IMG/VR virus record: IMGVR_UViG_3300035422_000248
Location: 47,949 to 67,948 of that record
Direction: 5' to 3' (one strand)
Length of the DNA: 20,000 nucleotides
Source of the DNA: an uncultured virus (IMG/VR IMGVR_UViG_3300035422_000248)
Taxonomy: Duplodnaviria > Heunggongvirae > Uroviricota > Caudoviricetes
Shown piece by piece: positions 1 to 17,357 of this stretch. Made by a program: the position numbers and the translations under genes. The notes beneath the pieces were generated by a model. The model was given only the letters and a program-made list of their open reading frames with translations, did no database searches and was not told the DNA's origin. Position 1 is the first letter of the stretch, and every line of letters starts with the position of its first letter.

Positions 1-3000
1 TTGGCGATTTTCAGACCTTGCAGGAATTTGTCAAGGAACTGCTGAACCTTTGCCTTGATTTTTCCCCAAAGCGTCAGTTCATCACGGTTCATCTTCTCAA
101 ACCCCTCGCTTCCGATGCGGCCGCCGAGGTCTGACATATATTCCTCCGTGGCTTCATTGCGGAATTGCCCGCGCTTCTTCTCGGCTTCTACACGTGCCTC
201 TGCCATGTCGGTATAGTAGTGTGAGTTCACATCTTCTCCGGCACGCTCATGAGCCATGCTCTTGCGCACACGCAGGCGGTCGGCTTCGGCTGATACCATC
301 TCATCAGTCATTTTGTCAATGACCTTGCGAATGGGATTAGAGGCATGAGCATAAACCTCTCCGAGGAACTCATCAAACCGATCTTCGCCGATAAGCGCAC
401 GCAGGCCCTTATGCCCGACAACCTCATGCACCACCGTGTTATCCACGTCAGCCACATTCACGTTGTTAGGCAGAACGACAACAACGCCATTATCATCCGA
501 ACTCCACCAACCTTTGGCACGTCTTTCCCTGCGAGTGGAGAGGTTGTTAACCTCCGACTGGTTGCGGATTACTCGGATATGCGTGTGTAGGTCATTAGAT
601 AGGCTTTCCACTCGTGCCTCCTTTGCTTCGGGCGATGACTCGTAAGCGTCCATGTATTCACGCGCTCTCTCCAGTCCTGCATCCCATTCGCCTGCATTTA
701 CACGATCGCGCAAATCTTCAAGCATAGTAACGTCTCCCTCGGCTACACTGCCGCTGATACCGCTGAACTTCGCGCCACGTTTGGCGAGTTCTGCGCGGAG
801 CATGGGAGGTACGGCGTTAATCGGGAATGCAACCTTTTGGTCACCCACACGCTCCATGATGAGGTCTGCAACCTCGCTCCACGGAACAATCCTGCTCGGC
901 TTGAAGTAGCGCGACAGCATGGTCTGAACCTTTGTCTCCTCGCTCAACTGGCCGTTAACGCTTCCGCTGTGCCAGTCCATAAGACCTACACTGTCTTTTG
1001 CGCCTTCGGCATGGTAGCCGCTGGTCTCTTCGCTTTCGGGATAGTAACCCTCCACGACAAGAAGTTCGGGGCGGTCGTAGGCGGCTGTGAACTGATCGTT
1101 GAGCGGTGAGGTGCGGATATGGAAATAGGGATTGTAGGCAACACCGCCGGTCGTGCGTCCGTTACCCTGCACAAGGTCGGCCTTGCCGTTGGCGTTCATC
1201 ATGCCCTCTTCGCTCTGCTCCCAACGGCTGAATATCATCGGAGCGCGCCACTCACCATTCTGCTTGGCCGTCATGGGAGGCAACACACCCATGTTCGCCC
1301 ACTGCGAATAGCGGAAGCCTTTCTTCAGCGGCTGATTGTTGAGGAAGTCAAGCACCGGTCCCTCTTCAACGAGACGATACTTGTTGCCGTCTCCATTGGT
1401 GGGAGTGTCCTCTCCGTCATCATCTAACGTAATGTCGGAAGCTGCATCAACGGATTTATCCATTTCGGCATACTTCTTCTCCTTTTCCTCCAGTTCTTTT
1501 CTCATCGCTTCCTCATATTGAGCGAGACGCGCCTTAGCCTCGGCGAGTTGCTGTTTATGGGGGAACTCCCTGCCGTTGCGCTCCTTGAGTTGGCGGTAGT
1601 CATCGGAGTATCGCGCGAGTTGCTTCTGGCCGCGTGAGAGAAGTTCTTGGCTGTCCGCGCCGGTCACAATCCTCTCCGCGATTTCCTCCATGATATTCTT
1701 GATGCGATTGCCTTTTACGGCCCGGTCCTTGATGCCGAGTGCCTCACACGAGTATGTAACTTCTCTCTTCGGCTCAAAGGATATTTGACCCTGTCCGTTG
1801 TTATCCACAATACGCGATACGTTGGTAGTCACCTCAAAAGGCAAACCGTCAACGTCAATGGTGAGTTTGCTTATCCAATTATCTGCACCCTCTTGAATTT
1901 GATCGGCGGCTTCATTCATCTTGGCGTTCTGCTCTTTGAAGAAATCGCCCATTGCTCCCACGCTGTCAAATGTGAGTTTGCCGATGGTTATCTTCTTGAT
2001 CGTGCCGTCGGGCCAATGTTTGCCGATGATTTCAAGGTTCTTGGTCTCAATCTCAATACGGCGTTCCGCGCCCTTGATGAGACCCTCCACCTTTGGCAAT
2101 TGGTTGTGGATGTAGATTTGGTCTATCTCATGACCTTTCTGCTTGGCGGTAAGATTGCGAACCTCGCGCTCGGCTTGGTTCTTCAGTATGGCATACTCAC
2201 TGCCCGACAACTGAGCGGTCATATCACCGAAAGAGTCCTCTTCCTCTTCAAGTACTCGGTTCTCCATTGAATTCTGCATCATCTTTGAGCCGTTCATAAT
2301 GGAATCCGCGATTGCGCCTTTGGTTTTCAGTCGCTGATATGCGGTAACGTCAAGACTATCCTCAACGCCGAAACGGATTATGCGCACCGGGATACCCATA
2401 TCCTTATGCAGGTTGCCCTGTCGCAGGGCACGTCCGTTGCGCTGGGTATAGTCCATAGGACGGTTGGGCGCGTCCACATGGATAAGCGTGTGCAGACGCT
2501 CCTGAATATTCACGCCGGTACCGAGTGTGAATGTTGAGCCGAGTATCACACGGATTTCTCCGGCATTGACTTTCTCGAAGATGTCTAACTTCTTCTTTAT
2601 TGTCATGCCCGATTTGATAATCACAATCTGCTCGGCAGGCACGCCCTCGGCAATGAGTTTGTTTCTGATCTCCTCGTAGAGGTTGAAACCGCTTCTCTTG
2701 TTTTGGTAGTTGTCGGAGAAGATTGCAACGGTGCCTTTATACTTCGCACTATCCTTGAGGGAACGCAGTGTCTCGCGCACGGTTGCGTTGGTCTTGCTGT
2801 TGGGGTCATCCTCGGCGTTGTCAACGACAAGTCGTGCATCTACGGCGGCCGCTTTGGCTATGCCGTACATGGTGAGGGGGATGTGAGAGTTCTCTTTTTT
2901 CTCCTTACCCTCCATTTTGTCGTAACGGTCCAGTTCTGCCTTTACATACTTCATCACACTGCGCAGGGCGCGGGTCTGAGGCAGGTAAATGTCAGTCGGC

Positions 3001-6000
3001 TTTCCTCCCTCCATTTCGGGGATTTTATCGCTCACACCGCCTGCCTCGCGTGTCAGAACGGTATCGGCTACACCGCTCCAAATGCGCACGAGTTCGGGTA
3101 GGTTTACATACCCGGCAAAGCGGCTCACCTCGGCAAACTTGCCGTTGGTCTTGAACTCAACCATCTGTGCGAGGTTGCCGAAGTTGCGGACAAAATCATC
3201 AAAGTAATATATGCCGTACTCTTTCATCGTGTCGGCAGGCATGAGGTAGCGCATGAACGTCCAGATTTCAGCGGCTGTGTTGGAGATAGGCGTACCTGTC
3301 GCAAACACAACATTGCGCCCGTGGTTGCGCTCCATGACTGCCTGCGTTTTCAGATATACGCCCTGCGACTTCTTGCTGTACGAGGGGTCAACACCTTTCA
3401 CTCCTCTCTGCATGGCAGTGGAGAAACCGAGGTGTTTGTATTCATGAGCCTCATCTATGAGAAGAGCGTCAATGCCCATATCATCGAAGTTTTCCACATC
3501 ATCCACCTCGCGGTCAAGCATCTCCATTGCTCGCACTTCGGCGTTCTGACGTGTGGTTGCCTCTCTCTTCTCATCGCGCTTTTTCTTCTTGCCCTGTATC
3601 GCTTCGGTCAGTTCGGCAAGGCGGTCGCGCTGTTCCTCAATCTCCTTTTCGGCCTGGCGCACAATCATGCTTCTGCCGTTATCATCGGCTTCACGCATGG
3701 CATCAAGAACTTTCAATTTTTCCTCAATGACATCTTGAATGTATGCCAGTTCGCGCTCCTCGCTGTCGGGTATGCGCTCAAATACCGACTGAGGAACGAC
3801 AATCATATCCCAGTCGTTGTACTTGATTTTCGCGTAGAAATTCTTGCGGCCCTCGGCTGTGCGGTCTGCTTCCTCAATAGTCAGCACCTTTGCATTGGGA
3901 TAAATCTCCTTTGCGCTCTCCACAAACTGACCGACTGTTGCGTTCTGCACAACTATCATAGGCTTGCGTGCTGTGCCGAGACGGCGCATTTCCATTGCCG
4001 TGGTGATAAGGGTGTAGGTCTTGCCGGTCCCGACCTCGTGAGCAAGCAGTATCGGCTCGGTCGTGCCTCTGACTACCGCTCGGCCTTGATGAGGACGCAA
4101 TGCAAAGGGTCTGCCGTGCAACTCTGTCACTTGACCGCCGAAATGCTTGGGAACAAACTCATCGGGAATTGACATAGGCACATAGTTGTTTAACTGCTCG
4201 TTGTAGGTATGCTCGATACGCGCCGACATATCCGGGTCTGCCTGCATACGTTCACGCGCCCAGTCTTTGAACTCTGCGCGGATTTCATCAATCTTGGTAC
4301 TGCACTCTGCGGTGGCGGCCTTGTCGGTTATGGTCTCTGATGTGCCATCCCATTTCTTTGTGGTCTTGCTGACGGTGATCTGCTTGTTGGTTATGGCAGC
4401 TTCAATCAGTTCATGCCCCATGATAGTCTTGTCACACATCTTGCTCGTTACCGACATGGCGCGGTTCTTTTCATTGAAGGTACTCCACGGAGTTTTCATA
4501 AACCATGTACCGCCTGCATTTGTCAGTTTCACACGGATACCTGTCTTTTCCTCCACGAAGTCCTCATAGAGTTTAGGTTCTATCCATGAAGAGCCGAGCG
4601 AGAACTCGATGAGGTGCGCAGGTATCGTCATGGGCATAACCTTTTCAAGAGCGGTGATATTCGGGTTATATCTGCCGTCCTCGTTGTTCTCCTGCGCGAT
4701 GTGCAGCTTCTCACGGACGTTGCCCGAAAGATACTGATACGACACCTCCATTGCCCCGGTTGAGGGGTTCTCGAAGCCGAGTCCGCTTTCCACGATTTCC
4801 TGCTTCACCTGCTCCTTGCTCTTGCCGAGTGCCTCGCTGATGTAGTCCACATCTATACTGCCACTCTTATAGAGGCTTGCAAGTATGCCGTCCTTGACTG
4901 TCGTAGGCTGTGGCTCTTTCTCCTTTTCAATCACACGGCGGCTGAAAATATCGGTCTTACCTGCCTTGACAACCTTGTTGCCTTTGTTGTCTCCTTTCTC
5001 CGAATAGGTCTCAAGTGCCATGATGCTTGAGAAGTCCACATCGTTGCGGAGGAAAGAGATTGCAGTATTCTTGTGGAGGTTGCCGTAGGTGCGCGTGAAT
5101 GTATCAAAGGCGCGGTTCAGTTCTTTCAACAGCGGCTCCAGTCCTGCGTCATCTTCATTGGTTGACTGATATTCCAGTACGTCCGACAACGCTTTCTTGA
5201 TCGCGCTGTATGCGTTGAAACACTCTGCCTTTGTGTGACCCTTGACCTTGTTTTTATTCAGTCCAATAGGCACAGCCTCGCCCATTCGGGCCATGCAGAG
5301 TTCTCCTTGTGAGTTCAACACCATGCTTCCCTCCTTGACACCATCGCCGAGTTTCTCATTGATGCGCATCACGGCTTCCTCTACATCGTGGTCTGAACGG
5401 AGTGAGGACATATCCTCCTCCATGTCTGCAAATCGGCTGACCCATTCGCTCAACATCTTATCCTGCGGTTTGTCAGCCGAGGGGAAGAGGGCGCGGCTTG
5501 TCGGTTGCCATGTCTCACCGCGCTCAAAGTTGAACATCATCTCGCCTGCCATATTCTCCGGGTGTTCCGCAAAATATTTGTTGTAGGTCATGCTGTACGG
5601 CTTGATGATAGGTACTTCCTGCCCCTTGACCTTGCGAGTATCCCCGGTGTCATAGTCTGCTACACGCACTGCGGTCACATCCGTAACGTCTATGGCGTTG
5701 GCTGACTGCTTGCCATTCACGCGCTTGCGCACAACGATAATATCAGAGGTTGCCCCGGTGCCTCCGAATGTCTTGTTGTGCATACGGAATGCCCCTATAA
5801 CATCGGTATTACCCTCGTTGATAATCCAACGGCGTAACTCTTTGGAGTTATCCATTGTACCGCTTGATGTGATGAAAATACCGATACCACCCTCGCGGAG
5901 TTTACGGACATTCTTTGCGATGCAGAAATCATGAATATTGCGGAATTTCTTGGAGAGGTCTTTGTCTCCAGTATCATCCTTAACGTGCAGACCTGTTACG

Positions 6001-9000
6001 AAAGGCACGTTGGTTATGGCAAGGTCAATGCTGTTGTTGCGCACTTTCGTTCTCTCAAAACCTTGTACGTCAACTCGTGCATCGGGATATAGCAACGAGA
6101 GTATGCCACCAGTGGTACGGTCAATCTCAACCGCATGGATATTACTGCGGTCGCTCATATCAGTGGGCATAAGTCCGAGGATATTGCCGATACCTGCTGA
6201 ACCCTCAAGCACATTGCCTCCCTTGAAACCTAATGCTCTCGCAACATTCCACATAGCATCAATGACTGGGGCAGGAGTATAGTATGCGCTATTTCGGCTC
6301 ATGACGGCATCATTATATCCGTCCTCGCCTAACAACTCACGCAGGCGGCTGACAGTCGGGTTATAGCCATTATCATTGAAAGCCTTACCGAGACCACCCC
6401 AACCGCTGAATTTTCGGAGTACCTCCATTTGTTCGGGCGTGGCGGTCTCTCCTGCATCAAGCAATTGCTTGGCAAGTTCAATAGCCTCAATGTTAGCCTT
6501 GATACGTGCGTCCTCACCTTTGGGGGCGTAGTCCACACCACGCTCCGCATGGTTGTTGCGCACGTTCCTACGCTCACCCTCAGGCAATCTCTCATTGTGG
6601 GAGGAGGTCTTATCGGTAGTTAAGGCTGATTTCGCAGGCTGTTCAGATACTCCTGCGCCTCCCTTACCGTCAGAGACAGGATGGTCGCTATCACGTCCAC
6701 CCATTCCTCCTCGGTCAGTTCGCTTAACTTCATTCCGCTGGCTCTCTCCCAACGGTTCATTCGGTTGAGGTTCGTGTCCTCCTGCTCGCTCGGTAGTGCC
6801 GGGGCGAGGTTGTACGTCAGTTTTCTTTTCATCGCTTATCGGTTCATCGAACAATCCACCGAAGAGGTCTCCGATCGGCTGTTCGGGTTTAACTTCCGCT
6901 TTTTTCTTCGCAGGTGCTTTCGGCTTCTTCTCCTGCGCCTCCTTTGCCACTCGCGCAGCTTCCTCAAAGATGTCCTCTTTGGGAGCGACAGCAGGTTTGT
7001 CTTTGGGTGTAGTCGGCTCTTGCTTCTCAATCTGACTCCACTCGCAAGCCTCATACATAACCGGTGCCATGCCGGTGTCAAGAGTAACATCAGAGCCGCC
7101 TCCGAAGTCAACGATGGTGGCGAGTTCGCGTTTGTGCTTGCCATCATTTCGGGTGTACCAAACCTTTTCACCGACCTTAAAGCCGTTCTTCTCGGTCTCG
7201 GCGATTTCGTGACGGTTCCAATAACCGCCTGCATCGTAAGGCTCGGCTTCCTCCGCTTTGGGCAGATAATTTCGCGCCTCGTATTTTACAGCGTTAAGGA
7301 AGTCAGAGTATGTGCAATCGGGTTGTATCCATTGATTATTGCCATATCGGTCTGCACCTTTCACTTCGGGTGCTTCCACTCGATACATGATGCTACGCAC
7401 TTCAAGGTTATCGCCATACCCATAGCCGTTCTTGTAAGCGTCGCCTCCGCGTCTATGCACAGGGTCAAGTCCGATGTAGATATGCAGTTCGCGTCCGTCC
7501 TGCAAAGGCAATGCAATAGTTACGTCACCTCCGGCGGGAGCGAGGTTTGCTCTTACAGCAGTGCCTTTCTTGACACTCTTGCGTCCGAGGGGAGTTGTCG
7601 CGCTCGTAACCTTGATGTCAAGACCAAGGTCATTAACCAACTGCTTGGCGAGTTTCGTTGCGTCTGCCACGGCTTTCTTCTCGGCTGTGAGCATATAGCC
7701 GTAACTCTCGTGGAATTTCGCGTCATCTGCCTCGGCTTCATAGTAGCCGAGCAGGGCCAGTTGATCGTTTATCTCATCGAGCGTGTTGTCTATTTCTTCT
7801 CCTGCTCGGTTGAGGGCTGTTGTATCTTCTGAAGTTTCTGCGAGACTTTCCGCTTCGCTTGCAACAGCCTCTGCTTTTTCTGCAAGAGCTGCTGTATCTG
7901 CTGCTGTTTGTTCATCCTGTTTCTTGCGGTTATTGTTACGGATTTCGGTTAATTCTTTCTGCGCCTGCTCTGATGCGGTGGAGGCTTTACGCTCCTCCAC
8001 AATCATGGCCGCCTGCGCGATTGGGTCTGCCTGCTTCTTGTCAAAGTTCTGCACATCGAAGCGTGCAACCTCCTCTGACGGAGTAAAGGCATAATTCTCA
8101 TAGCCGGGTGTCCAGCGTGCGCCCTCATAGAACGACTTGAGCCACGGACGTATCTTATTACCCAACAATCCCACCATCTTGGTAGCATAGTCAGGGAATG
8201 ACGTTGTGCCACGCTCCACGAGACCCATTGCCAATCGGATACCTGCCGACTGGATGCGCTGACGCTCCTGCGGGGTGAGTTCGCCCGGATCGCGGAATTT
8301 GAGAGTGCTGTCTCCCTCATCTTCTCCTATACCGAGGAGGTCACGCAACTCGTTAGCCAATGACTGCATCTCATCATCGCTAATCTCGTGCTGTGCCTCT
8401 TTCGGTGTGTCAGCAGGTTTGTCTTTGGGTGAAAGCGGCTCTGCATGGTCGCTTAACTTCGCTTCCCCCTTTGTCTGCAAGTCCTTTGCCACATCTTCAA
8501 GACTGACGCGGTTGATAGCTGCTTTCTTCGGCTTCTTTTCCGATGTAGGTTTCTTCTTTGCAGGCGCAACCGCCTCGCGGAGTTCCTCTGCGGTCATAGG
8601 CTGTGCGTCTGCAACCGCCTCGCCCGACTTGTCGGCAATCATCTCGCCTGCCTTGCGTGCGTCCTCCTCGGTGCGGAAGAGCCACTCTGAATATGTGTCT
8701 TTGTCCGAACACCAACCGCGGGCCTTTCTGCCGTCTGCCTTTTCACGAGCAAAGGCGGCCAACGCCTTGCGCTGTTCATAGGTGGGAGGTGTAGCGAAAG
8801 ACACTGCGTGCATCGGCGTGGTCTTGCCTGCCTTGTTGGTGTACGTGGAGGGAGTGATTGTGTAGGGTGCTGACGGTTCGGCGGGAGCAGGAGCATTGGA
8901 CGCTCCGACCGCTTTCACGCTCTTGTATTCAGAGAATGGTTTGGTCTTGCGCTTCGATGACTGCACCCACTTCTTGAACTCATCTTTGCTCACTTGGGTT

Positions 9001-12000
9001 ATTGCTCCCAGACCGGTCCACCCGGCTTCATAGTTGGAGAGGTACGCCTCGCGTGCAACTTCCTCCGAGGGGAAGCCATACATAACCTTGTGTTCATCAA
9101 ACGAGCCGTCCGCGTTGCGTTGGTCGATGACAAACACATCGCCCTCTTCGGGAGTGTCCGAGAGGAACACGTCAATGTGGTCTCCGTCCACACCCTCCGT
9201 GCCACGAATATAGCCGTAGTCATTGTGCATCTCGGTTTCCCACTCCGTGCCGTCTGCGTTCTTACCACGGCGCACACTTCCTTTGGGGTTCTCAATGCTG
9301 ATGTTGTAACCATCAATACGGCGGTGTTCCATCTTGTAATTTCCGGCGGCTTTCTGCGCTTCGGTAGGCTCGGCAGAGGCGGTGTCTATCGCCTGCGCTA
9401 TGCTTGCGAGGTCTCCGTAGTCCTTGCCGTTATAGGTGAGTTGACTGCCCGTGTACGAGCCTTTATCGTCCGGCGCATCAGTTTGGATAATCTCATGCTT
9501 GCCGTCAACGTAAAGTTTACGCTTGTATATCGGGTGAGCCTCATCGGGACCGGCTTCTTCCCACTCATCGCCTACGCTGATACGCGCACGCAGGGCGGCT
9601 TCTTCGGGGGTGTCCTCGTTGATGTCGTTACGGTCATTGCCGAGCGGCTCTAAATCGGTGCGCTCCTCCGCTACTGGTTCTGAACGCTCTGCATTGCGTT
9701 CATCAACATTCGGAGTTTGTTCACTTGCTTGGCCTCGTCCACGCTGTTCTGCTTCGGCTTCTGCTCTGCGCTTGCGCTCCGCAATGGCAGCGTCCACGAG
9801 TGCCTGCTGTTCTCTTGGGGTTGCATTTCTGAAATGTTCATTTACGTTTGTGAGAATATTTTCTTTGGTGGGTATCTCGCCTGTGAATAGGTCTGCTTGA
9901 CCGCTTGCAGACTGCGATGCCTCGTTGTTGTAGGAGGTCAGAACCTTGCGCAGGTCGCTCGGCTTGCCGCTGTTCAACAGGTCTGCAAGAAGAAGAGTGG
10001 TGGCGTCCGTCACGCGGCTGTCTCCGTACTCATCATCAAACAAACCCTGCATACGTCCGAAAGGTGACACTGGCATACCGTCAGTGTAGATGTCCGGCTG
10101 TGCGGCTTTGGCACGATACACGAGGTCAACCGCTTTGGATAGTTCCTCGCTCAAATCGTAGCCGGAGCGAGAGAGAGTGCGGTTGCTTGCAATCTCATTC
10201 AATCCCATGACGATAGACTGGCGCATGGTCGGCATGGAGATAATCTGACGCACTGCATCGGGCGAGGTTTGGAACACCTTGCCGATAAGTGTATTTTCGA
10301 TCAACTCCTTGCCTGCAGCCGACAGTGCGGTGCCGGTCCGCATTTCGGGCATTTGCTTGTCGTTGATTACACCTGCCTGCATCAGTGCGCCTAAAGCGTG
10401 CGCCACGGCTTTCTCATCGGCATAATAATCCGAAAGTCGGTCATAACGGCTGATCTCGCCTACAAGGTCATTGAAAATATTGTCGGGAACAATCTTGCCG
10501 AGTTTCACGGCGGCTTCGGGTTTAGACTGGCTCTTCATCTCCTGCGCGTTGAAACGTGAGAAGGTGGTTGCATCGTAGGGGAGGGCCTCATCCGGCACGA
10601 ATACCAGTCGGGGGTTCTTCATCCCTGCAACCTGCTCCGGGGTGAAGCCGTACTTCTGCCCGAACTCTCGCAGATAATCAATATAAGCCTTGTCAGTACC
10701 CTGCCGTGCGGCGAGGTCTCCGCTCATGGTGCGGTTGTTGCCCGACAGCACCACGCCGTCACGACTGACAATTACGGGAGTCTGCAAAGCGCGGTTGTCG
10801 TATGCGCCTGCCATTTGCTCCACAATGCGCTGTGCGTCCTTGTCGCGGAGGTAGTCGCGGTCATTCACGCTCTGTCCGTTCTCATCAATCGGGAAACCCT
10901 CGGTCGGCTCGTATGCGTTGTTGACATCGTGGCTCGCGGAGGCGGCTCCTGCTTCGGTAAGTACATAGCGACCGTGGATTGTAGAGCCGTCCGGCAAAGT
11001 GATTGCATCGGGGTTGCCCTCAATCTTCGGAGTGTTATCCCATTTCTCTTTGATTTTGGGATTGACCGCATGAACGCCTACGCGCTCCTGTTCGGCCTGC
11101 TTCTCGGCTTTGATGCGCTGTTGCTCTTCAAACTGAGCCACGGCTGCATCATGCGCCTCTGCATCACGCTGACGGCGTTCCTCCTCGCGCTGACGGCGTA
11201 ATTCTGCACTGCGTGAAGTATAGACACCCAATATCGCGTTCCATGCGTCAAGGCGCGCCTGCGTGTCGGCAATCTGCTGATTGTATTGGGCGAGTTCGCT
11301 CTGATACTTTTCGGCCGCCTCGCGCTTCGCCTGCGCCATAGCCATAGGTGAACCTTTCAGTTTGGGTGCTTTGGGTGTAGGCGGTTTCTTCTTGAGTGCT
11401 TCAAGGTCGGAGGTTGCCTGCTGAACCTGCGCCGTGGCAATGTCAGCCGCGTCACTCTCACCGCCGACAGCCTCAACAAGTCCATCCCAGGCCGTCTCTT
11501 TCTCCACGGCTTCAAACATCGGCTCTCCCTCCTCGTTGAGAGGGATGCGAGAGAGTGCCGTTTCCTGTCCGTTTCCTACACTTGCGTCCGTTTCAGACAC
11601 GTTTTCACCCTCTGAAACGGCGTTTTCGGTAGAATTGGGAACGCTTTCATCGGTTTTGGGAACGCTATTGGCGGCTCTGTCCTGCTGAACAAACTCCAGT
11701 GCTTCAAGTCTGCCACGGATATAATCATCCACGCGCCCTTGCTCCTGCATCTGCTTCTGCGCACCCTCGCGCAGTGCGTCCACATAGGTGGCAAGTCGCT
11801 CATCGGTGAGGCTCTCTGCCTCCTCGATTGCGTCACTATATCCACGGTCATACTCCTCAACATTGGGGGTTGGAATATTTTCCTCCCCATTGTTGCCTTC
11901 TACTGGAATATTTTCATCGGGGTTGTTGCCTGTCGGCTCTTCCGCAACCTCGGCAGTTTCCTCGGCAGGGTTCTCACGTCCACTGAACATTGACATCTGC

Positions 12001-12173
12001 TCCTGCTCAATGACTTCATGAGCGGCTCGCAACTCCTCCTGCGGATCCACCGCCTCGGAGATATTCAATATTTGGTCGGGTGAGGTAAACTCATACTCAC
12101 CGCTCTGCGCGTCCATGACAACGACACTCTCCGAAGAGTTCCGTACGTCAACGGCAGTGCCGTCGGGGAACAT
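1..12173 (-). CDS. Giant DarB-like polyvalent protein (>=4057 aa, 3' end outside window): DdrB/ParB-like + inorganic pyrophosphatase-like + N6-adenine DNA methyltransferase + SNF2/SF2 helicase + zincin metallopeptidase
   Basis: ATG at 12173-12171 begins MFPDGTAVDVRNSSESVVV. The same frame still reads as protein at the left edge (EATEEYMSDLGGRIGSEGFEKMNRDELTLWGKIKAKVQQFLDKFLQGLKIA). The ORF track has no - strand ORF closing in this frame below 12173, consistent with no internal stop. Motifs translated by hand: VLSGNNRT, GTEGVDGDHIDVF, FSGWGG, VLEGSAGIG, NVPF, HEVGTGKT, DEAH, ATGTP, QRNGRALRQGN, HEVVGH. Confidence 0.93.
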   Translation of the reverse strand, partial: MFPDGTAVDVRNSSESVVVMDAQSGEYEFTSPDQILNISEAVDPQEELRAAHEVIEQEQMSMFSGRENPAEETAEVAEEPTGNNPDENIPVEGNNGEENIPTPNVEEYDRGYSDAIEEAESLTDERLATYVDALREGAQKQMQEQGRVDDYIRGRLEALEFVQQDRAANSVPKTDESVPNSTENAVSEGENVSETDASVGNGQETALSRIPLNEEGEPMFEAVEKETAWDGLVEAVGGESDAADIATAQVQQATSDLEALKKKPPTPKAPKLKGSPMAMAQAKREAAEKYQSELAQYNQQIADTQARLDAWNAILGVYTSRSAELRRQREEERRQRDAEAHDAAVAQFEEQQRIKAEKQAEQERVGVHAVNPKIKEKWDNTPKIEGNPDAITLPDGSTIHGRYVLTEAGAASASHDVNNAYEPTEGFPIDENGQSVNDRDYLRDKDAQRIVEQMAGAYDNRALQTPVIVSRDGVVLSGNNRTMSGDLAARQGTDKAYIDYLREFGQKYGFTPEQVAGMKNPRLVFVPDEALPYDATTFSRFNAQEMKSQSKPEAAVKLGKIVPDNIFNDLVGEISRYDRLSDYYADEKAVAHALGALMQAGVINDKQMPEMRTGTALSAAGKELIENTLIGKVFQTSPDAVRQIISMPTMRQSIVMGLNEIASNRTLSRSGYDLSEELSKAVDLVYRAKAAQPDIYTDGMPVSPFGRMQGLFDDEYGDSRVTDATTLLLADLLNSGKPSDLRKVLTSYNNEASQSASGQADLFTGEIPTKENILTNVNEHFRNATPREQQALVDAAIAERKRRAEAEAEQRGRGQASEQTPNVDERNAERSEPVAEERTDLEPLGNDRNDINEDTPEEAALRARISVGDEWEEAGPDEAHPIYKRKLYVDGKHEIIQTDAPDDKGSYTGSQLTYNGKDYGDLASIAQAIDTASAEPTEAQKAAGNYKMEHRRIDGYNISIENPKGSVRRGKNADGTEWETEMHNDYGYIRGTEGVDGDHIDVFLSDTPEEGDVFVIDQRNADGSFDEHKVMYGFPSEEVAREAYLSNYEAGWTGLGAITQVSKDEFKKWVQSSKRKTKPFSEYKSVKAVGASNAPAPAEPSAPYTITPSTYTNKAGKTTPMHAVSFATPPTYEQRKALAAFAREKADGRKARGWCSDKDTYSEWLFRTEEDARKAGEMIADKSGEAVADAQPMTAEELREAVAPAKKKPTSEKKPKKAAINRVSLEDVAKDLQTKGEAKLSDHAEPLSPKDKPADTPKEAQHEISDDEMQSLANELRDLLGIGEDEGDSTLKFRDPGELTPQERQRIQSAGIRLAMGLVERGTTSFPDYATKMVGLLGNKIRPWLKSFYEGARWTPGYENYAFTPSEEVARFDVQNFDKKQADPIAQAAMIVEERKASTASEQAQKELTEIRNNNRKKQDEQTAADTAALAEKAEAVASEAESLAETSEDTTALNRAGEEIDNTLDEINDQLALLGYYEAEADDAKFHESYGYMLTAEKKAVADATKLAKQLVNDLGLDIKVTSATTPLGRKSVKKGTAVRANLAPAGGDVTIALPLQDGRELHIYIGLDPVHRRGGDAYKNGYGYGDNLEVRSIMYRVEAPEVKGADRYGNNQWIQPDCTYSDFLNAVKYEARNYLPKAEEAEPYDAGGYWNRHEIAETEKNGFKVGEKVWYTRNDGKHKRELATIVDFGGGSDVTLDTGMAPVMYEACEWSQIEKQEPTTPKDKPAVAPKEDIFEEAARVAKEAQEKKPKAPAKKKAEVKPEQPIGDLFGGLFDEPISDEKKTDVQPRPGTTERAGGHEPQPNEPLGESQRNEVKRTDRGGMGGRDSDHPVSDGKGGAGVSEQPAKSALTTDKTSSHNERLPEGERRNVRNNHAERGVDYAPKGEDARIKANIEAIELAKQLLDAGETATPEQMEVLRKFSGWGGLGKAFNDNGYNPTVSRLRELLGEDGYNDAVMSRNSAYYTPAPVIDAMWNVARALGFKGGNVLEGSAGIGNILGLMPTDMSDRSNIHAVEIDRTTGGILSLLYPDARVDVQGFERTKVRNNSIDLAITNVPFVTGLHVKDDTGDKDLSKKFRNIHDFCIAKNVRKLREGGIGIFITSSGTMDNSKELRRWIINEGNTDVIGAFRMHNKTFGGTGATSDIIVVRKRVNGKQSANAIDVTDVTAVRVADYDTGDTRKVKGQEVPIIKPYSMTYNKYFAEHPENMAGEMMFNFERGETWQPTSRALFPSADKPQDKMLSEWVSRFADMEEDMSSLRSDHDVEEAVMRINEKLGDGVKEGSMVLNSQGELCMARMGEAVPIGLNKNKVKGHTKAECFNAYSAIKKALSDVLEYQSTNEDDAGLEPLLKELNRAFDTFTRTYGNLHKNTAISFLRNDVDFSSIMALETYSEKGDNKGNKVVKAGKTDIFSRRVIEKEKEPQPTTVKDGILASLYKSGSIDVDYISEALGKSKEQVKQEIVESGLGFENPSTGAMEVSYQYLSGNVREKLHIAQENNEDGRYNPNITALEKVMPMTIPAHLIEFSLGSSWIEPKLYEDFVEEKTGIRVKLTNAGGTWFMKTPWSTFNEKNRAMSVTSKMCDKTIMGHELIEAAITNKQITVSKTTKKWDGTSETITDKAATAECSTKIDEIRAEFKDWARERMQADPDMSARIEHTYNEQLNNYVPMSIPDEFVPKHFGGQVTELHGRPFALRPHQGRAVVRGTTEPILLAHEVGTGKTYTLITTAMEMRRLGTARKPMIVVQNATVGQFVESAKEIYPNAKVLTIEEADRTAEGRKNFYAKIKYNDWDMIVVPQSVFERIPDSEERELAYIQDVIEEKLKVLDAMREADDNGRSMIVRQAEKEIEEQRDRLAELTEAIQGKKKKRDEKREATTRQNAEVRAMEMLDREVDDVENFDDMGIDALLIDEAHEYKHLGFSTAMQRGVKGVDPSYSKKSQGVYLKTQAVMERNHGRNVVFATGTPISNTAAEIWTFMRYLMPADTMKEYGIYYFDDFVRNFGNLAQMVEFKTNGKFAEVSRFAGYVNLPELVRIWSGVADTVLTREAGGVSDKIPEMEGGKPTDIYLPQTRALRSVMKYVKAELDRYDKMEGKEKKENSHIPLTMYGIAKAAAVDARLVVDNAEDDPNSKTNATVRETLRSLKDSAKYKGTVAIFSDNYQNKRSGFNLYEEIRNKLIAEGVPAEQIVIIKSGMTIKKKLDIFEKVNAGEIRVILGSTFTLGTGVNIQERLHTLIHVDAPNRPMDYTQRNGRALRQGNLHKDMGIPVRIIRFGVEDSLDVTAYQRLKTKGAIADSIMNGSKMMQNSMENRVLEEEEDSFGDMTAQLSGSEYAILKNQAEREVRNLTAKQKGHEIDQIYIHNQLPKVEGLIKGAERRIEIETKNLEIIGKHWPDGTIKKITIGKLTFDSVGAMGDFFKEQNAKMNEAADQIQEGADNWISKLTIDVDGLPFEVTTNVSRIVDNNGQGQISFEPKREVTYSCEALGIKDRAVKGNRIKNIMEEIAERIVTGADSQELLSRGQKQLARYSDDYRQLKERNGREFPHKQQLAEAKARLAQYEEAMRKELEEKEKKYAEMDKSVDAASDITLDDDGEDTPTNGDGNKYRLVEEGPVLDFLNNQPLKKGFRYSQWANMGVLPPMTAKQNGEWRAPMIFSRWEQSEEGMMNANGKADLVQGNGRTTGGVAYNPYFHIRTSPLNDQFTAAYDRPELLVVEGYYPESEETSGYHAEGAKDSVGLMDWHSGSVNGQLSEETKVQTMLSRYFKPSRIVPWSEVADLIMERVGDQKVAFPINAVPPMLRAELAKRGAKFSGISGSVAEGDVTMLEDLRDRVNAGEWDAGLERAREYMDAYESSPEAKEARVESLSNDLHTHIRVIRNQSEVNNLSTRRERRAKGWWSSDDNGVVVVLPNNVNVADVDNTVVHEVVGHKGLRALIGEDRFDEFLGEVYAHASNPIRKVIDKMTDEMVSAEADRLRVRKSMAHERAGEDVNSHYYTDMAEARVEAEKKRGQFRNEATEEYMSDLGGRIGSEGFEKMNRDELTLWGKIKAKVQQFLDKFLQGLKIA
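120..560 (-). other. Zincin-like metallopeptidase domain of the giant protein (polyvalent-protein type, HExxxH)
   Basis: AKGWWSSDNNGVVVVLPNNVNVADVDNTVVHEVVGHKGLRALIG, with HEVVGH at 428-411 and a downstream acidic helix EATEEY at about 155-138. This layout is typical of the metallopeptidases in phage polyvalent proteins. Confidence 0.72.
2300..4110 (-). other. SNF2-like superfamily 2 helicase/translocase domains of the giant protein (DarB-type)
   Basis: Q-motif LRPHQ near 4090, Walker A HEVGTGKT (4040-4017), DEAH (3455-3444), motif III ATGTP (3302-3288), motif V LGTGVNIQ and motif VI QRNGRALRQGN (2444-2412). Confidence 0.92.
5700..6560 (-). other. N6-adenine DNA methyltransferase domain of the giant protein
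   Basis: LRKFSGWGG, then SAYYTP, then SAM-binding motif I VLEGSAGIG (6212-6186), AVEID, and catalytic motif IV NVPF (6011-6000). Motif I precedes motif IV, as in DarB-like MTase-helicase fusions. Confidence 0.92.
6620..6832 (-). CDS. Putative overprinted 70-aa helical protein nested in an alternative frame of the giant gene
   Basis: MKRKLTYNLAPALPSEQEDTNLNRMNRWERASGMKLSELTEEEWVDVIATILSLTVREAQEYLNSLRNQP has normal, amphipathic-helical composition. The host frame over the same interval is a G/R/P-rich disordered linker. Confidence 0.55.
   Translation of the reverse strand: MKRKLTYNLAPALPSEQEDTNLNRMNRWERASGMKLSELTEEEWVDVIATILSLTVREAQEYLNSLRNQP
6974..7020. repeat. 47-bp imperfect direct repeat, copy A (partner at 8396-8442)
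   Basis: 40/47 identity by manual alignment, with an exact 21-bp core CAGCAGGTTTGTCTTTGGGTG (6989-7009). Encodes EPTTPKDKPAVAPKE. Confidence 0.85.
8396..8442. repeat. 47-bp imperfect direct repeat, copy B (partner at 6974-7020)
   Basis: Exact 21-bp core at 8411-8431. Encodes EPLSPKDKPADTPKE. The offset between copies is 1422 bp (474 codons). Confidence 0.85.
8925..9370 (-). other. Inorganic pyrophosphatase-like (InPase) domain of the giant protein
   Basis: PTEAQKAAGNYKMEH...ISIENPKGSVRRG...MHNDYGYIRGTEGVDGDHIDVFL...FDEHKVMYGF. The YGYI..T...DGDxxD and DxK pattern mirrors family I PPase active-site motifs, as seen in phage polyvalent proteins. Confidence 0.88.
10490..11000 (-). other. DdrB-like ParB/Srx-fold domain of the giant protein
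   Basis: IHGRYVLTEA..SHD...NDRDY...LQTPVIVSRDGVVLSGNNRTMS...FSRFN. The PVIV..DG.V.SGNxR motif (about 10778-10731) corresponds to the ParB/Srx GxxR signature. Confidence 0.75.
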
Positions 12174-15100
12174 CACCACTTGACAACATAGACCTGCCTG
12201 TCATCAACTTTCATCGTGGCAGGGATAATCACACCGCTGTCCTTGTGGGTGCGCTTCTCCACAGCCTGCTCAACCTCCGCACGCTTGCGGTCAGCGGCCT
12301 CATTGGAAGCGTCCATAACGCCGTCAAGCGCGGCCTTGGCGTTGATGTAGTACAGAACCGCGTCCTGCTGTTCAACGGTCAGTTCGGGGTCATTGAGCAA
12401 ATCCCACGGATTTTCATTGAGGTGGAACATATAATATTCGCTCTCCGCTCCGAAAGCGTCCTCAACGCCTTGGTATGCCTCCTGCATACGTATGGTGATA
12501 GCGTCCACGTCAGCCTGCGCGGTCGGGTCACCCTGCTCAAAGCGGCCATACAGCAATCGCCCCTCCTTTTGCATACGCCACGCACGGATTACGTCCTTAC
12601 GATGTTCATCTTTGGCTTCTTGGTATGCCTTTTGCCAAACATCATTGGCATTGCGTGTGCGCTCTCCCTCGGTGTAAAGACGCTCGATATACATCTGAAT
12701 AGCATCCTGCTCTTTGGGTGTGCGGTCTTTGGCGCGTTTCTTCAGTGCAGTGTCAATATCAACACCGAATTTGTCATTTATATGCTCCCTCAACACTGCG
12801 GGATTAAGCAGGCTCTCTTTATACATTCCCTCGGCGAGAGTGTTGACATCATCAATTATCTTCTGCTCGGCTTCCGAAACATTCTCACCGCGCAGATACT
12901 TCTCATAGATATTCTCAATGCCTTCGGGAATGATGCCGTGCTTCTCGCTGACCTCCCAAACAACATTGTGGGCCGCTGTCCTCTGCATTTCTTGATTGGC
13001 AAACTGCTCGCCTACGTCCACCGAATTGAGTTCTGCCTGTCGCATGATGTTGTCAACCTCACCCTGCGCTTTCTCCTTGTTGGCAAACCTGCGACTGGTA
13101 ACGACATCGCCGTTGGCGTTGGTGGCGTTCACAATCACACTGCCGTCCTCGGCTGTGGTGGTCTGATACCCGGTGACGCTTGACATCGGGAGCATACGAC
13201 CCGTGAGGATATAGTAGGCTTTGGCGCGGGCCGCTTCACTGACCCTGCCGTCCTGCATCAGTTTCTCCATTGCCGAATAGCCGTCAAATTCGGGTCTGCC
13301 GTTGTATATGATCTCAGCCTCCGCACGCTCGGCTCTCAACTCGATTGCTCCCTCCGCAGGGTTAGGCTGTGAGATAGGACGCTCCTTGTCGCGGCTGAAC
13401 AGGTCGGCAAGTTCGCCATAACCTGCCCGGCGCAACTCCTCGCGCTCATCGGCTGTGAAAGATAGATCGTTCGGACTCGCGTCCATATTCTTGCGCAGAC
13501 GCTCCTCAAAGTTCATGCGGTTGTGAGTGCGCTCTGCCTGCGTCAGAGGTCTGCCCTCAGTCGGCTTGATAGGACGCAGACCTGCAATGACACGCGGTGC
13601 GCTCTTGATACCGTGCTGTGCCTTGAAGCCAAGCATCATTGCCATGTTGTCAGTCCACACGTCCATTGCATCACGCTCTCCGCTTATCCATTCGGGGATA
13701 GAGAAGATTGTACCCTCCGCAAGAGTGGACACTGCAACCTCACCACCGCGCACAGCCATCTTGCCTGCCGTGGAGGTCGTAACCTTGACCGCCTTGTCAG
13801 CCACATTGCCTATGAGAGGGGATGCAGTACCAACTATACCACCCATTATGAAACCATGCTTGGTGGCATTGAGTAGGTCTTGCCCGGAAAATCCGTTGGA
13901 AGTGCCGGTTGCATAGTCGGGCATACCCCCGGTTGAGGCTTGCTGTTGCAAGTTCTTTAATGTCTCATAAGTGGCAAAGTTAAATGCACCTCCGGCTGCA
14001 CCCTGCACAAGTCTCCCAGTGAGGGTTCTTGCTGCAATCCGCTCGGCCATTTCTTTCGTAGCACCTTTAATCATTTGCTTACCCGCAATCTTTAACGCCT
14101 GCTTTCCCGCTGCGCTCCCAACACCTCCCGATATGTATGTGGTCGGGTCAATTGCCATATTGCCGATTGTGCCGATTATATCAAGCACACGATGCTCTTG
14201 ACCGTATTGAGACATAGCAGCTTGGTCTGCTATTGTCATTCCATACGAGCCAGTCATAGCCGAAGCGGCCATATCCATTGCTTGATAAGTGGAAACGAAA
14301 GGCTGATCGGCAAGTTTTCGCAAAAAGAACTCAGTTTTACTCTTAGGCATACGCGAGTCTACAGCGTGCTGATAGACCGCTTGGTAAACTTCACCTTTGA
14401 GTGCTTCCTCTGCGGCTGACTGGACGGTACGCCCATTCAGTTCGTTGGTATGAGTTGAGAAATACTGCTGATAGGCCTGAAGTTGAGAATTGCGATACGA
14501 TGAGGGCAACCCGGCATAAACGCTTTCAGCCATTTTTTCAAGGTTGAATGTCTCCTTACGCTTGACTGCCCGATTGTAGTCTCGTAAGTTCTCTTCGGGA
14601 GTAGGCAGAGGCATTCCGTCCGGTCCATAGGCTCGGATATTGCTCCGAACGGAATTATTATACTCCTTGAGTTGGCGTGTGTATTCCTCATCAGCCTCTC
14701 TATCCTCGGCTTCGGCTTGCGCCCAGACATTGCTAAGAACTTTGCGCATAGGTGCCTCATAGTCCAACTGCGCCTGTTTCTGAACGTCCTCCTGCTTGCT
14801 CGGGTCAAGTCCGTTCTGCTTCATGCGCTCTACAAACTGATTGCGCAGACGGACCGTGCGTGCGCCGTACTCCGCTTGGTCTGCCTCGATAAGGCTTGTA
14901 GTCAGTCGGCCATCGGGCAACAACCACTCCGTGACAGGCTTGCCGTCCACATACTTCACTCCGTAGGGGACTGGAGACTGACCGCTCTGAATAGGCTTCT
15001 GCTCTGCACCGTCCGTCTCACCGCCTTGTGTATCGGGCGCGGACACTGATGTTGGGGGGGTAAGACCCATGACCTGCGTGGGAGTGCCTGCAAGCTGCGC

Positions 15101-15574: not shown

Positions 15575-15586
15575 AATGGGTTATGA

Positions 15587-16855
15587 TTATGCGGTGGGAG
15601 ATTGGCGGCCGGTCGGACTGGGTTTGCCTGCGTGACCGCCTTTCTTGGTCTTGGTTTGTGATGTGGATGACTTCTTACCTCGTGCATCCGTTTTTTCGGT
15701 AGCGGTGACTTCGCTGACATCCTCCTCTTGCCATGTGCCGTGTTGCTTGGCAAAAGCCTCTGCAGCTTCCTTCGTTCGGAATGGATGTGCTTTGCCGTGT
15801 TCATCCCATGCCGTGAACTCCGACACGTTGGAGCGGTCATGCGCCCTCGCTGAAGCATAGGAGTTGGCGGCAGAGGCTCTTGAAGCACTCGCGGATGCGC
15901 GTTGTGCTTCTCCTCGCGCCTTTTCCGTACTGAGTTTTGCGGCTTGGAGTGCCGGAGCATTGTCGGCTTCTGCCTGCGCTGTCCTCGCGTCCTGCTCGGC
16001 TTTGTCTGCCTTACCTGCCTGTTCACGCTGTTTGTCGGGTTGCAGGAGGGCAAGCCAATTATGCTGTTCAGCTTTGCGCTGTGCCTCCTCACGAGCAAGT
16101 TTCTGACGCTCCTGCTGTGCTTCCAGTTCGCGCAAGGTCTTGGCACGATCGTTCTCAATGTCTCCGAGTTTGAGCGAGAAGTTGAGATACTCATCGCGTT
16201 TCTTCTCCCTCTCTGCTTTCAACTTCTCTATACGAGCGTCCACGGCATTAGTCATGCTGCTCTTCTCGTGGTTATACATATTCGGGGCATACTGCGAGGT
16301 GAAGAAAAGATTGCTCAACGCGCCTATGCCGTCACTGATAGCGGCAATAATCTTCTTTGACTTCTCCCTGCGCTCGCGCTTCTTGCGCTGTTCAGCGGTC
16401 TCCGGGCGATTTTCCTCCGCGTTCATCCAGTCTTGGATAGTCTTGATTTGGCGGTCTGACCCTGCAACGGCCTCGGCACGCTGACGCTCATTCTCTGCGC
16501 GTTCGCGTTCCTCCTCGGCTCGTTTCTTCTCTTCATCCGTGGGTGAGGCTTCTTCATGCTCTGTATCCGATGCAGGGATCGGCTTTGACTCCGCTCCGTC
16601 ATCTTCTTTGTCCGCATTGACGGCAGGAGCCTCAATCGGTTTAGCCGATACAACCTCTTGCCCTGCTTCGGGTGCGCCTGCAAGGTCTGAGGATATTGGA
16701 GGAGGTACGGAAGCCGAAGCCACGGCGGTACCGGTCATGGGAGACTTGGGAGTGCCGTCATTCCCTCCCGGCATAGATACGGGCGCACCCTCAATCTCCG
16801 TAGCGAAACCCGGATTTGAGGGAACGACATCAATTGGTTTGTTGTTCTGTATCAT
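15587..16855 (-). CDS. Putative ejection/DNA-transfer protein (422 aa, coiled-coil)
   Basis: Acidic disordered N-terminus, one hydrophobic helix (IIAAISDGIGALSNLFFTS), long E/K/R/A coiled-coil and a basic tail. It is the middle gene of a tightly packed operon. The function is inferred from composition and synteny only. Confidence 0.8.
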   Translation of the reverse strand: MIQNNKPIDVVPSNPGFATEIEGAPVSMPGGNDGTPKSPMTGTAVASASVPPPISSDLAGAPEAGQEVVSAKPIEAPAVNADKEDDGAESKPIPASDTEHEEASPTDEEKKRAEEERERAENERQRAEAVAGSDRQIKTIQDWMNAEENRPETAEQRKKRERREKSKKIIAAISDGIGALSNLFFTSQYAPNMYNHEKSSMTNAVDARIEKLKAEREKKRDEYLNFSLKLGDIENDRAKTLRELEAQQERQKLAREEAQRKAEQHNWLALLQPDKQREQAGKADKAEQDARTAQAEADNAPALQAAKLSTEKARGEAQRASASASRASAANSYASARAHDRSNVSEFTAWDEHGKAHPFRTKEAAEAFAKQHGTWQEEDVSEVTATEKTDARGKKSSTSQTKTKKGGHAGKPSPTGRQSPTA

Positions 16856-16865
16856 CTGATGAGGG

Positions 16866-17357
16866 TTAGAACGCGCCTGCTATCCCTGCGCCTGCCTGTG
16901 CCACACCCTGCACGGCAGAACTGATAGCCTGCGCTTTGTTGATTTCAAGATTGTTCAGAGCGTCATTTATCTGCGCGTCCTTCTGCTGATAGGTCTGCTC
17001 GATTTGGTCTTTGCGTGCCTCGGCATTGACGGCGATCTGCGAAGTTGCATCGGCGAGAGCCTGATTGTTGGCAGCTTTGGCGGCTGCAACGCTCTCCTCC
17101 GTGCCTCCCATGACAGCCTGCGCCCCGGCGGCTTGGCGGTTGCGGTTCTTGATAGACTCCTCCGTCTTGGTGAGGATACGTTGAGCATCGGCACGCTGTG
17201 TCGCGTCCTCATTGTATCTGCGGTCGTACCAGTCTTGATTTGCCTGCTTCTGCGCCTGCAAATTCTTCTTGACTTTCTTCATGGCTTTACTTGCCGAAAT
17301 ACCGCCGAAAATACTCCCGACTGCCGACAAGCCTGCGCCTACTAAACTTCCTATCAT
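16866..17357 (-). CDS. Small putative ejection/DNA pilot-like internal virion protein (163 aa)
   Basis: G/A-rich hydrophobic N-terminus (MIGSLVGAGLSAVGSIFGGISAS), Q/N/A-rich coiled-coil core and G/A-rich hydrophobic C-terminus (AVQGVAQAGAGIAGAF). This architecture is typical of small podoviral ejection proteins (P22 gp7/T7 gp14 role). Confidence 0.8.
   Translation of the reverse strand: MIGSLVGAGLSAVGSIFGGISASKAMKKVKKNLQAQKQANQDWYDRRYNEDATQRADAQRILTKTEESIKNRNRQAAGAQAVMGGTEESVAAAKAANNQALADATSQIAVNAEARKDQIEQTYQQKDAQINDALNNLEINKAQAISSAVQGVAQAGAGIAGAF

Follow-up and report, generated by a model that had tools for sequence, protein, structure and literature searches.

Whether an exceptionally long open reading frame (ORF) at the edge of a viral sequence is the last of several genes or a part of a single, still larger one, and whether its product travels in the virion, are the questions raised by a 20,000-nucleotide (nt) stretch from an uncultured tailed phage, IMG/VR record IMGVR_UViG_3300035422_000248. 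This stretch, called the window here, comprises bases 47,949–67,948 of the 67,948-bp record, which is classed as a provirus and rated 100% complete. On its minus strand, ORFs of 163, 422 and 1,133 amino acids (aa), separated by intergenic gaps of 10 and 12 nt, are followed by a frame that is stop-free from window position 12179 past the left end of the window, with 4059 codons inside it. An earlier note on this DNA, made from the letters alone, had described the same minus-strand block of a 163-aa, a 422-aa and very large frames, with at least 4057 open codons in the last one, and the ORFs are as it described them. It had also advised extension beyond the window in search of the stop, which was found at position 44,258 of the same record, 3,691 nt left of the window, giving 5,289 codons from the first GTG and 5,287 from the ATG at window position 12173. 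The 1,133-aa ORF and this downstream frame belong to one gene, divided in the record by a gap of 7 nt. Compared with known systems, its product is a new and very large addition to the established polyvalent, DarB-like class of virion proteins, for which packaging and an anti-restriction role would follow by analogy.

The unity of the gene is evident from DNA of other origin. All five aligned relatives carry 7 extra nt between GTCAA and GTGGTGATG in the DNA alignment, and the contigs of four out of four sequencing runs, from four studies, have CATCACC behind window position 12178 and are otherwise identical over 2 kb, although contigs may hide rare variants, so that a minority short form could escape notice. 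When the 7 nt are restored, the translation reads ...VKGDVVMFP..., as in the relatives, and the ORF extends over 6,422 aa (~717 kDa) and 19.3 kb, or 28% of the record, with no internal stop. Their loss creates a TGA overlapping a conserved in-frame ATG (TGATG). In the temperate Bacteroides phage BKO1-TP3, the nearest cultured relative, gp55 is a single chain of 5,553 aa, its ends matching both window ORFs; the two ends of the 1,133-aa ORF are collinear with gp55 residues 6–141 and 762–825, and the first residues of the downstream frame continue the alignment. Moreover, none of the 54 IMG/VR loci encoding a relative of the 1,133-aa ORF stops at the junction. Past this point at least 2,000 codons are open in 48 of them and the frame is open to the end of the sequence in four, while in the remaining two it stops 1,748 and 725 codons beyond. 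Thirty-one relatives, assembled from N- and C-terminal loci by contig coordinates with every overlap identical, are spanned end to end, and in 29 the giant is a single ORF of 6,260–6,780 aa.

The gap site is a near-tandem repeat (GGTGATG T GGTGATG). In addition, the C-terminal part has a 100%-identical copy (locus L134) in a genome that also carries a second, related prophage copy (L168, G001:C21:55463-59062), 94% identical at the junction and with the 7 nt intact. Either the repeat or the second copy could mislead an assembler. The 7-nt gap is a flaw of the record and not of the phage, and the giant is single and intact in nature. The deposited record miscalls one gene as two, the 1,133-aa product circulates as a separate database entry, and the true gene is among the largest phage genes seen. 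The proposal in the earlier note that an enzymatic payload is linked to a separate large ejection protein falls away, the 1,133-aa ORF being the N-terminus of the giant itself. Programmed frameshifting was also considered and dropped, as the 28-nt overlap of the two frames holds no slippery heptamer and the intact form exists as DNA.

Table 1. Features of the giant gene and its surroundings. Window coordinates are 1-based; P0001 residues count from the GTG of the downstream frame, and positions in the full chain are obtained by adding 1,133.
Feature	Window position	Strand	P0001 residues	Basis or remark
Integrase	18507-20000			Pfam/PHROG scans
Small-protein ORF P0004, 163 aa	16866-17357	-		ORF call; Gly-rich hydrophobic N- and C-termini
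Medium-position ORF P0003, 422 aa	15587-16855	-		ORF call; charged, partly low-complexity
Apparent ORF P0002, 1133 aa	12173-15574	-		ORF call; really residues 1-1131 of the giant
7-nt gap (GGTGATG on - strand)	12178/12179			DNA alignment and other assemblies
Downstream frame of the giant, part inside window	1-12173	-		5,287 codons from ATG at 12173
DdrB-like ParB	10602-10988	-	398-526	Pfam PF18763, 35.0 bits (cut-off 27.6)
Type-I inorganic-pyrophosphatase-like InPase	8961-9362	-	940-1073	Pfam PF18823, 193-196 bits, full model
Unnamed region			1080-1560	45-59% identity; partly matched by PHROG 10089
Low-complexity charged stretch			up to ~1860	Identity bins
N6-adenine DNA methyltransferase, DarB type	5724-6506	-	1892-2152	
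SF2/SNF2-type helicase	2028-4100	-	2694-3384	
Variable region			3370-3870	28-36% identity
Candidate zincin-like domain	93-635	-	3849-4029	HEVVGH at window 411-428
Helical C-terminal module, ~1,060 aa	outside window		4130-5190	

The interior of the giant is a string of enzymatic domains, designated here as the cargo (Table 1). Identities were measured in 100-residue bins on the window chain aligned with 29 full-length relatives, motif counts refer to 30 full-length sequences unless stated otherwise, and Pfam was run on 20 segments of the giant. The ParB domain resembles residues 108–164 of P1 DdrB (BLASTP, E 3e-6). Of the 28 sequences with this domain, all keep an N of its SGNNRT motif and 27 keep G, N and R, the R being the arginine of the ParB/Srx pocket. 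In the InPase, GVDGDHIDVF and DEHKVM, with the acidic metal ligands, are invariant (30/30). The methylase has an SxGxG motif I near residue 1994 and NVPF at 2057–2060, whose S, G, G and NVPF are invariant (30/30); it matches P1 DarB residues 47–274 at E 2e-20 (BLASTP), with NVPF aligned to the NVPF of DarB, and Pfam Eco57I reaches 20.6 bits, under the cut-off of 25.3. The helicase bears GTGKT (2717–2721), DEAH (2909–2912) and QRNGRALRQGN (near 3246); GxGKT, DExH and QxxGRxxRQGN are invariant in 30/30 and (T/S)GT is conserved, corresponding to motifs I, II, III and VI. It is matched by ResIII (23.0 bits, cut-off 22.5), Helicase_C (45.9) and, under its cut-off of 24.9, SNF2-rel (22.9), and is collinear with P1 DarB in two BLASTP matches (E 4e-15 and 3e-5).

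PHROG 10089, 'DarB-like antirestriction', covers residues 803–4018 with 1958 bits against profile positions 829–3593 of 4647, the last ~1,000 positions of the profile being without a match in the giant. Searches of PDB sequences and profiles returned nothing credible for the methylase region or for the stretch between InPase and methylase; Pfam found neither a MuF domain nor a named LPD domain in the 20 segments, and no SLT match at E ≤ 1 in any of them. These similarities show homology of the cargo core with P1 DarB and DdrB, and likewise with the giant virion proteins known from Bcep22-like phages. The earlier suggestion that DarB-like and DdrB-like parts are combined in one chain is borne out by the BLASTP matches to both P1 proteins.

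The last domain of the string is of a different standing. The earlier note had listed a zincin besides the ParB, pyrophosphatase, m6A methylase and SNF2 helicase domains; these four hold, and the zincin comes down to HEVVGH, an HExxxH motif one residue longer than HExxH, in a region that has no Pfam or PDB sequence match. The H, E and H are invariant in 30/30, as is a downstream Glu (ATEEY). Nothing was returned for the region by Pfam (E ≤ 1), by PDB sequence profiles or by hhalign against the peptidase part of P1 DdrB. An AlphaFold2 (AF2) model of P0001 residues 3640–4075 has a mean predicted local distance difference test score (pLDDT) of 61, with model residues 1–127 unmodelled and 128–436 scoring 60–93, and in it three short strands precede the motif helix. 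Foldseek found no match to this model in PDB at E ≤ 1e-3. In a wide VIA-align search, only four entries cover the sheet-plus-helix part (model residues 210–288), namely 2ejq (Z 5.7, 75 residues), 1oz9 (Z 5.3), 3e11 (Z 4.9), titled 'predicted zincin-like metalloprotease', and 6cyj (Z 5.6), titled as a transcriptional regulator; Z values of 4.9–5.7 fall in the range that the tool calls common. We take 2ejq, 1oz9 and 6cyj to be zincin-like. The ESM Atlas gave, as leads only, LPD23 and LPD1 clusters (scores 0.95 and 0.90). Because the Z values are common and the sequence searches empty, the modelled HExxxH region is regarded as a probable metallopeptidase only.

The best-conserved part of the giant lies beyond the window. 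The C-terminal 1,100 aa are aligned without gaps at 65–90% identity among the 29 relatives, versus ~60% for the enzymes, and the C-terminal module is 73–93% identical in most of 74 IMG/VR loci. A profile of 1,063 positions retrieved 1,483 cluster representatives at E ≤ 1e-3, and 625 at E ≤ 1e-30, among 1.84 billion; among the best 150 of the 1,483, which are proteins as long as 7,091 aa, its place is close to the C-terminus. Neither Pfam nor PHROG nor PDB sequences gave a match to the module. An AF2 model from a 22-sequence alignment (pLDDT 72; predicted template modelling score, pTM, 0.65) is almost wholly helical. Against BFVD it has 107 matches at E ≤ 1e-3, of which the strongest (2.6e-36) has a template modelling (TM) score of 0.64. 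Most of the BFVD matches listed are fragments ('_2', '_3') of long phage proteins, with 11–21% identity in nearly all, and among their names are ART-PolyVal, LPD-containing, MuF_C, nuclease, N-acetyltransferase, 'crystallin beta/gamma motif-containing' and 'structural protein'. The module also occurs in proteins from metagenomic phages that bear the labels Myoviridae and Siphoviridae. Its fold thus recurs in parts of many phage polyvalent proteins, and because the BFVD matches are named for differing enzymes, the C-terminal module, so far undescribed, looks like a constant carrier under variable cargo, and it offers a defined, foldable target for studying how very large proteins enter and leave capsids.

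As to the ancestry of the module, VIA-align returned only generic long helical hairpins (residues 140–252, Z ≤ 10), which is no evidence of a new fold, and the Foldseek search of PDB brought up a PhiM1 ejectosome chain at E 0.96, which is not significant. With residues 1407–1737 of Bbp10 from podophage BPP-1, hhalign aligned 294 collinear columns at 26% identity (E 0.028, probability 1.8%), and BLASTP gave E 0.026 in the same register; the link to Bbp10 is not significant by itself. The RefSeq product name of Bbp10, 'crystallin beta/gamma motif-containing protein', recurs among the BFVD matches listed. The sequence relation to Bbp10 may be regarded as a lead and not as a result.

The N-terminal region, corresponding to the 1,133-aa ORF, starts with a doubled 'GY-ME..F..N' motif, followed by an Ala/Pro/Gln linker and a Gly-rich core (~400–870) of 50–70% identity, and the region holds the sole weak hydrophobic segment of the giant. 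It has no Pfam, PHROG or PDB sequence match, is 31–73% identical across IMG/VR loci, and its core found only unnamed viral clusters in the ESM Atlas, which serve as a lead only. Upstream of the giant, the 163-aa protein recurs in 52 of 55 related loci at 53–96% identity, and a homolog of the 422-aa protein, with a conserved core at ~148–257, stands between the small gene and the giant in 54 of 55. Pfam T7_gp14 (PF24072) is matched at E ≤ 0.01 by 12 of 13 aligned homologs of the small protein (best E 1.6e-9), which supports, at the family level and by sequence, membership in the T7 gp14 internal-virion family. The 422-aa protein has no Pfam or PHROG match. The ejection-type trio of small, medium and large proteins proposed in the earlier note finds support for its small member, gp14-like at the family level in 12/13 homologs, and not for its large one, which is no separate gene.

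The block does not end with the giant, as had been thought. A gap of 65 nt separates it from a P22-type portal gene (PHROG 156 with 322 bits, P22_portal of Pfam with 143) that follows on the minus strand, and of 74 related loci, 73 have a portal gene 3' of the giant in the same orientation, the remaining locus ending at the match. Adjoining the portal gene and facing it, on the plus strand, is the gene for the large terminase. Farther along there are genes for an SU10-type capsid protein, a 2,806-aa protein, a reverse transcriptase (RT), a holin and an amidase, and early genes on the plus strand encode RecT, an SNF2 helicase, a DnaC-like loader, a radical-SAM protein and a C5 methylase. This gene content, together with the integrase, identifies a temperate phage with podovirus-type head genes and confirms the phage origin that had been assumed. 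Origin from a conjugative element was dropped, the neighbors being portal, terminase and capsid genes.

Most elements of this arrangement have precedents, and the combination that the earlier note had inferred is not new, having been described both in polyvalent proteins of exactly these domain types (PMC5512222) and in giant DarB-like virion proteins of podophages. Polyvalent proteins were defined by Iyer et al. in 2017, with InPase and DdrB-ParB restricted to the phage type and a peptidase fused with SNF2 ATPase, adenine methylase and ParB, and packaging into the capsid and processing by the peptidase were proposed (PMC5512222). Features of this class found here are at least two conflict-related enzymatic domains in one chain and a position beside portal and terminase genes, whereas a long helical C-terminal module is not named in the available text of that paper (PMC5512222).

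In phage P1, DarB (2,255 aa) has the methylase followed by the helicase, the same order as in the giant, and darB adjoins the portal gene by annotation, as the giant gene does here. DarB and DdrB (995 aa), however, are separate proteins of a myovirus, whereas the giant is one chain. To our knowledge, an anti-restriction function of DarB and DdrB is known for P1 only. Both are head-internal proteins and not parts of the conduit (PMC8402733 and annotation).

Among cultured phages, BKO1-TP3 is closest. Its gp55 (GenBank PQ571269.1), which is already annotated 'DarB-like antirestriction', shares 65% identity with the giant over the methylase-helicase part, and the gene order (integrase, small, medium, giant, portal) is the same. 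It is ~870 aa shorter, and its N-terminal region diverges, with 38% identity over only the first ~150 aa. More distant are the giants of Bcep22-like phages, JC1 gp69 and Bcep22 gp75, which have the central cassette in common with the giant at ~28% identity (tblastn); Bcep22 gp75 we take to be a giant DarB-like virion protein, partly from the annotations of its record. JC1 gp69, like the giant here, is preceded by genes for a small and a medium virion protein. The DarB-like gp69 (4,515 aa) was detected by mass spectrometry with 51 unique peptides in virions purified on cesium chloride (CsCl), and the products of the two genes preceding it (196 aa and 510 aa) are also virion-associated (PMC9144972). 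In JC1, the giant gene is distant from the portal gene and closes the morphogenesis module (PMC9144972). In place of the terminal domains of gp69, the giant here has its own N-terminal region, a ParB and the ~1,060-aa C-terminal module; by sequence, it is the cargo core that is shared with the verified Burkholderia proteins, and not the carrier.

The order of small, medium and very large genes is also that of T7 gp14-gp15-gp16 and of BPP-1 Bbp12-Bbp11-Bbp10, but the set here has no transglycosylase. The BPP-1 trio follows the head and tail genes, whereas the one here is upstream of the portal gene, and hhalign found no match of Bbp12 to the small protein or of Bbp10 to the N-terminal region. 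With respect to size, Pavtok gp27 (5,007 aa) was called the longest known phage protein in 2021, and such ejection proteins have been argued to pass the channel at least partly unfolded (PMC8402733). A 14,256-bp gene was called the second largest phage gene in 2016. The giant exceeds both. No description of Bacteroidales proteins of at least 6,000 aa was found among the papers listed by one literature search.

Taken together, it is likely that the record represents a temperate podovirus-like phage of Bacteroidales, whose virion block consists of a gp14-like protein, the 422-aa protein and one polyvalent giant of ~6,422 aa, with the portal gene next to it. The giant has three parts, an N-terminal one of ~1,130 aa, a cargo string (DdrB-type ParB, pyrophosphatase, DarB-type m6A methylase and SNF2 helicase, probable HExxxH metallopeptidase) and the conserved helical C-terminal part of ~1,060 aa. 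The C-terminal module, perhaps with the N-terminal region, would bring a few 717-kDa copies into the procapsid near the portal, and on infection the chain would leave via the portal and tail, partly unfolded, with the gp14-like and 422-aa proteins. That one or both end modules act as such a carrier, and that a few copies are ejected partly unfolded with or before the DNA, we consider rather likely. A chain of low cysteine content, pI 5.3 and nearly devoid of hydrophobic segments would suit unfolding and refolding on ejection; the giant has 16 cysteines in 6,422 residues (0.25%) and a calculated isoelectric point (pI) of 5.3.

Inside the cell, the methylase-helicase and ParB would act on the entering DNA, as is thought for P1 DarB and DdrB. 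By analogy with P1 DarB, the chances are about even that they protect the incoming genome from restriction. The other enzymes invite more tentative suggestions: the pyrophosphatase might remove inorganic pyrophosphate (PPi) or a nucleotide signal, and the HExxxH domain, situated exactly where cargo and carrier adjoin, might cut the one from the other, each of which is less likely than not. A broader and equally speculative idea is that the end modules, and in particular the C-terminal one, are a universal delivery chassis of tailed-phage ejection proteins, into which arbitrary enzyme cassettes are spliced and from which HExxxH frees the cargo after entry. If this were true, the Bacteroidales version (6,260–6,780 aa, and up to 7,091 aa among the cluster representatives) would be the longest phage protein on record, and such a chain would need to be threaded unfolded through portal and tail.

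Several observations weigh against this account. The match of T7_gp14 to the 163-aa protein itself covers residues 4–160 and amounts to 23.5 bits, under the cut-off of 27, and a profile of this protein run against PDB sequences found no solved structure, that of T7 gp14 included. Compared by hhalign, the small protein has no detectable relation to JC1 gp67. JC1 gp69 has SLT (42 bits, N-terminal), LPD3 (65) and LPD38 (118, C-terminal), none of which is present in the giant. The C-terminal module is matched by no solved structure in PDB profiles, in Foldseek at E ≤ 1e-3 or in the wide VIA-align search. The zincin assignment depends on a non-canonical HExxxH and a Z of ~5. There is one weakly hydrophobic segment in 6,422 aa, so that a membrane-spanning role in a conduit is without direct support. 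The suggestion in the earlier note that the conduit itself could methylate the incoming DNA, translocate on it or blunt nucleotide signalling is a conjecture. In two of the 31 relatives (L011/L067 and L048/L075) the giant is interrupted elsewhere, after 3,316 and 2,800 codons. No experimental data on this phage or a close relative were seen, and the available text of the paper on BKO1-TP3, which was isolated as a temperate phage, does not discuss gp55 (PMC12694917).

Of the competing explanations, the one that survives best, possible and still on the unlikely side, is that the giant, like P1 DarB in the head, is nothing more than packaged cargo and has no share in the DNA-entry channel, with the end modules targeting the capsid and the conduit being formed by the gp14-like, 422-aa or other proteins. 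This would agree with the head-internal location of P1 DarB and DdrB in a myovirus, with the lack of an SLT domain and the single weak hydrophobic segment of the giant, and with the occurrence of the C-terminal module in phages labelled Myoviridae or Siphoviridae, which need no gp16-type conduit. The position of the giant gene, however, is that of gp16 behind a gp14-like gene, and the weak similarity of the C-terminal module is collinear with Bbp10, the largest and third product of the bbp12-bbp11-bbp10 run.

It is improbable that the producing cell is where the enzymes act, late and not after ejection, for instance by methylating progeny DNA before or during packaging, with virion association being incidental or absent. 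The gene does lie in a late structural block, and the prophage has a separate early C5 methylase and SNF2 helicase, so that DNA modification in the producer cell is within its repertoire. Such a role is at odds with the abundance of the homolog JC1 gp69 in purified virions (PMC9144972), and a 717-kDa fusion to a conserved carrier, encoded beside the portal gene, would be hard to explain for a cytoplasmic enzyme.

More improbable still is a real split, in which a 1,133-aa protein and a 5,287-aa protein re-initiated at TGATG would make up a small, medium and large trio with a separate payload. The record as given is frameshifted, its new TGA overlaps the in-frame ATG in a manner permitting coupled re-initiation, and the 1,133-aa product is found letter for letter in the ESM Atlas, meaning that the short form has been gene-called at least once. 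This entry may derive from the same record; the repeat and the 94% second copy invite an assembly error, and the 7 nt are present in 4/4 other assemblies and 5/5 relatives, with 0/54 loci stopping there. That the giant gene survives only as a decaying relic of a cryptic prophage, devoid of current function, as the frameshift in the record and the two interrupted relatives might hint, is scarcely credible, given the intact gene in 4/4 other assemblies, the 19.3 kb free of internal stops, the catalytic motifs invariant in 30/30, a record rated 100% complete, retroelement repeats that differ only at template adenines and a relative, BKO1-TP3, isolated as a temperate phage.

The distribution of relatives is in line with a host among the Bacteroidales. 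The genome with the 100%-identical C-terminal copy is titled Muribaculaceae, and the 34 loci in species-representative genomes that hold a relative of the C-terminal part are titled Muribaculaceae, Bacteroidales, Prevotella, Prevotellamassilia, Bacteroides, Porphyromonadaceae, Duncaniella, Tannerellaceae and others; binning errors may explain a few bins that bear the labels Eggerthellaceae, Akkermansia, Anaerovoracaceae or Clostridia. Around the junction, the 2-kb stretch is shared (0.99 of sampled words) by 20 public runs of nine studies, made up of mouse gut metagenomes plus two runs from a single coded organism. Short contigs of doubled depth at window positions 12104–12140 in two metagenome runs fit two prophage copies per sample, like those in the Muribaculaceae genome. 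If the giant is packaged as proposed, a large group of Bacteroidales prophages (Muribaculaceae, Prevotella, Bacteroides) would count among the phages whose particles contain a DarB-type anti-restriction machine, which bears on how such phages cross restriction barriers in the gut. Quimbyviridae was dropped as the phage group, the available part of the Quimbyviridae paper covering myovirus-related phages and mentioning no such protein; a megablast of the whole window against a phage collection gave no match.

Some further features of the record may be noted. A scan for sigma-70 promoters upstream of the virion block found no sites, a result given no weight because Bacteroidota promoters differ from that consensus. 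Divergent from the block, a plus-strand ORF of 146 aa (window 17437–17877) has a basic N-terminus, MAKGKKTGGRQKGTPNKE..., and an acidic tail, with no PHROG or Pfam match; its start is reminiscent of small terminase subunits. Two short runs of N occur in the record, at 6540–6549 and 38278–38291, the second within the SU10-type capsid gene. Outside the window there is also a diversity-generating retroelement (DGR), a feature common to BPP-1 and this prophage. Its 121-nt repeat pair (record 27119–27239 and 27397–27517) is located between the RT gene (record 25488–27053, minus strand) and the last ~55 codons of the 2,806-aa protein, and all differences between the repeats are at adenines of the RT-proximal copy, which is the DGR signature. 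The target of the DGR is probably the receptor-binding end of a tail protein.

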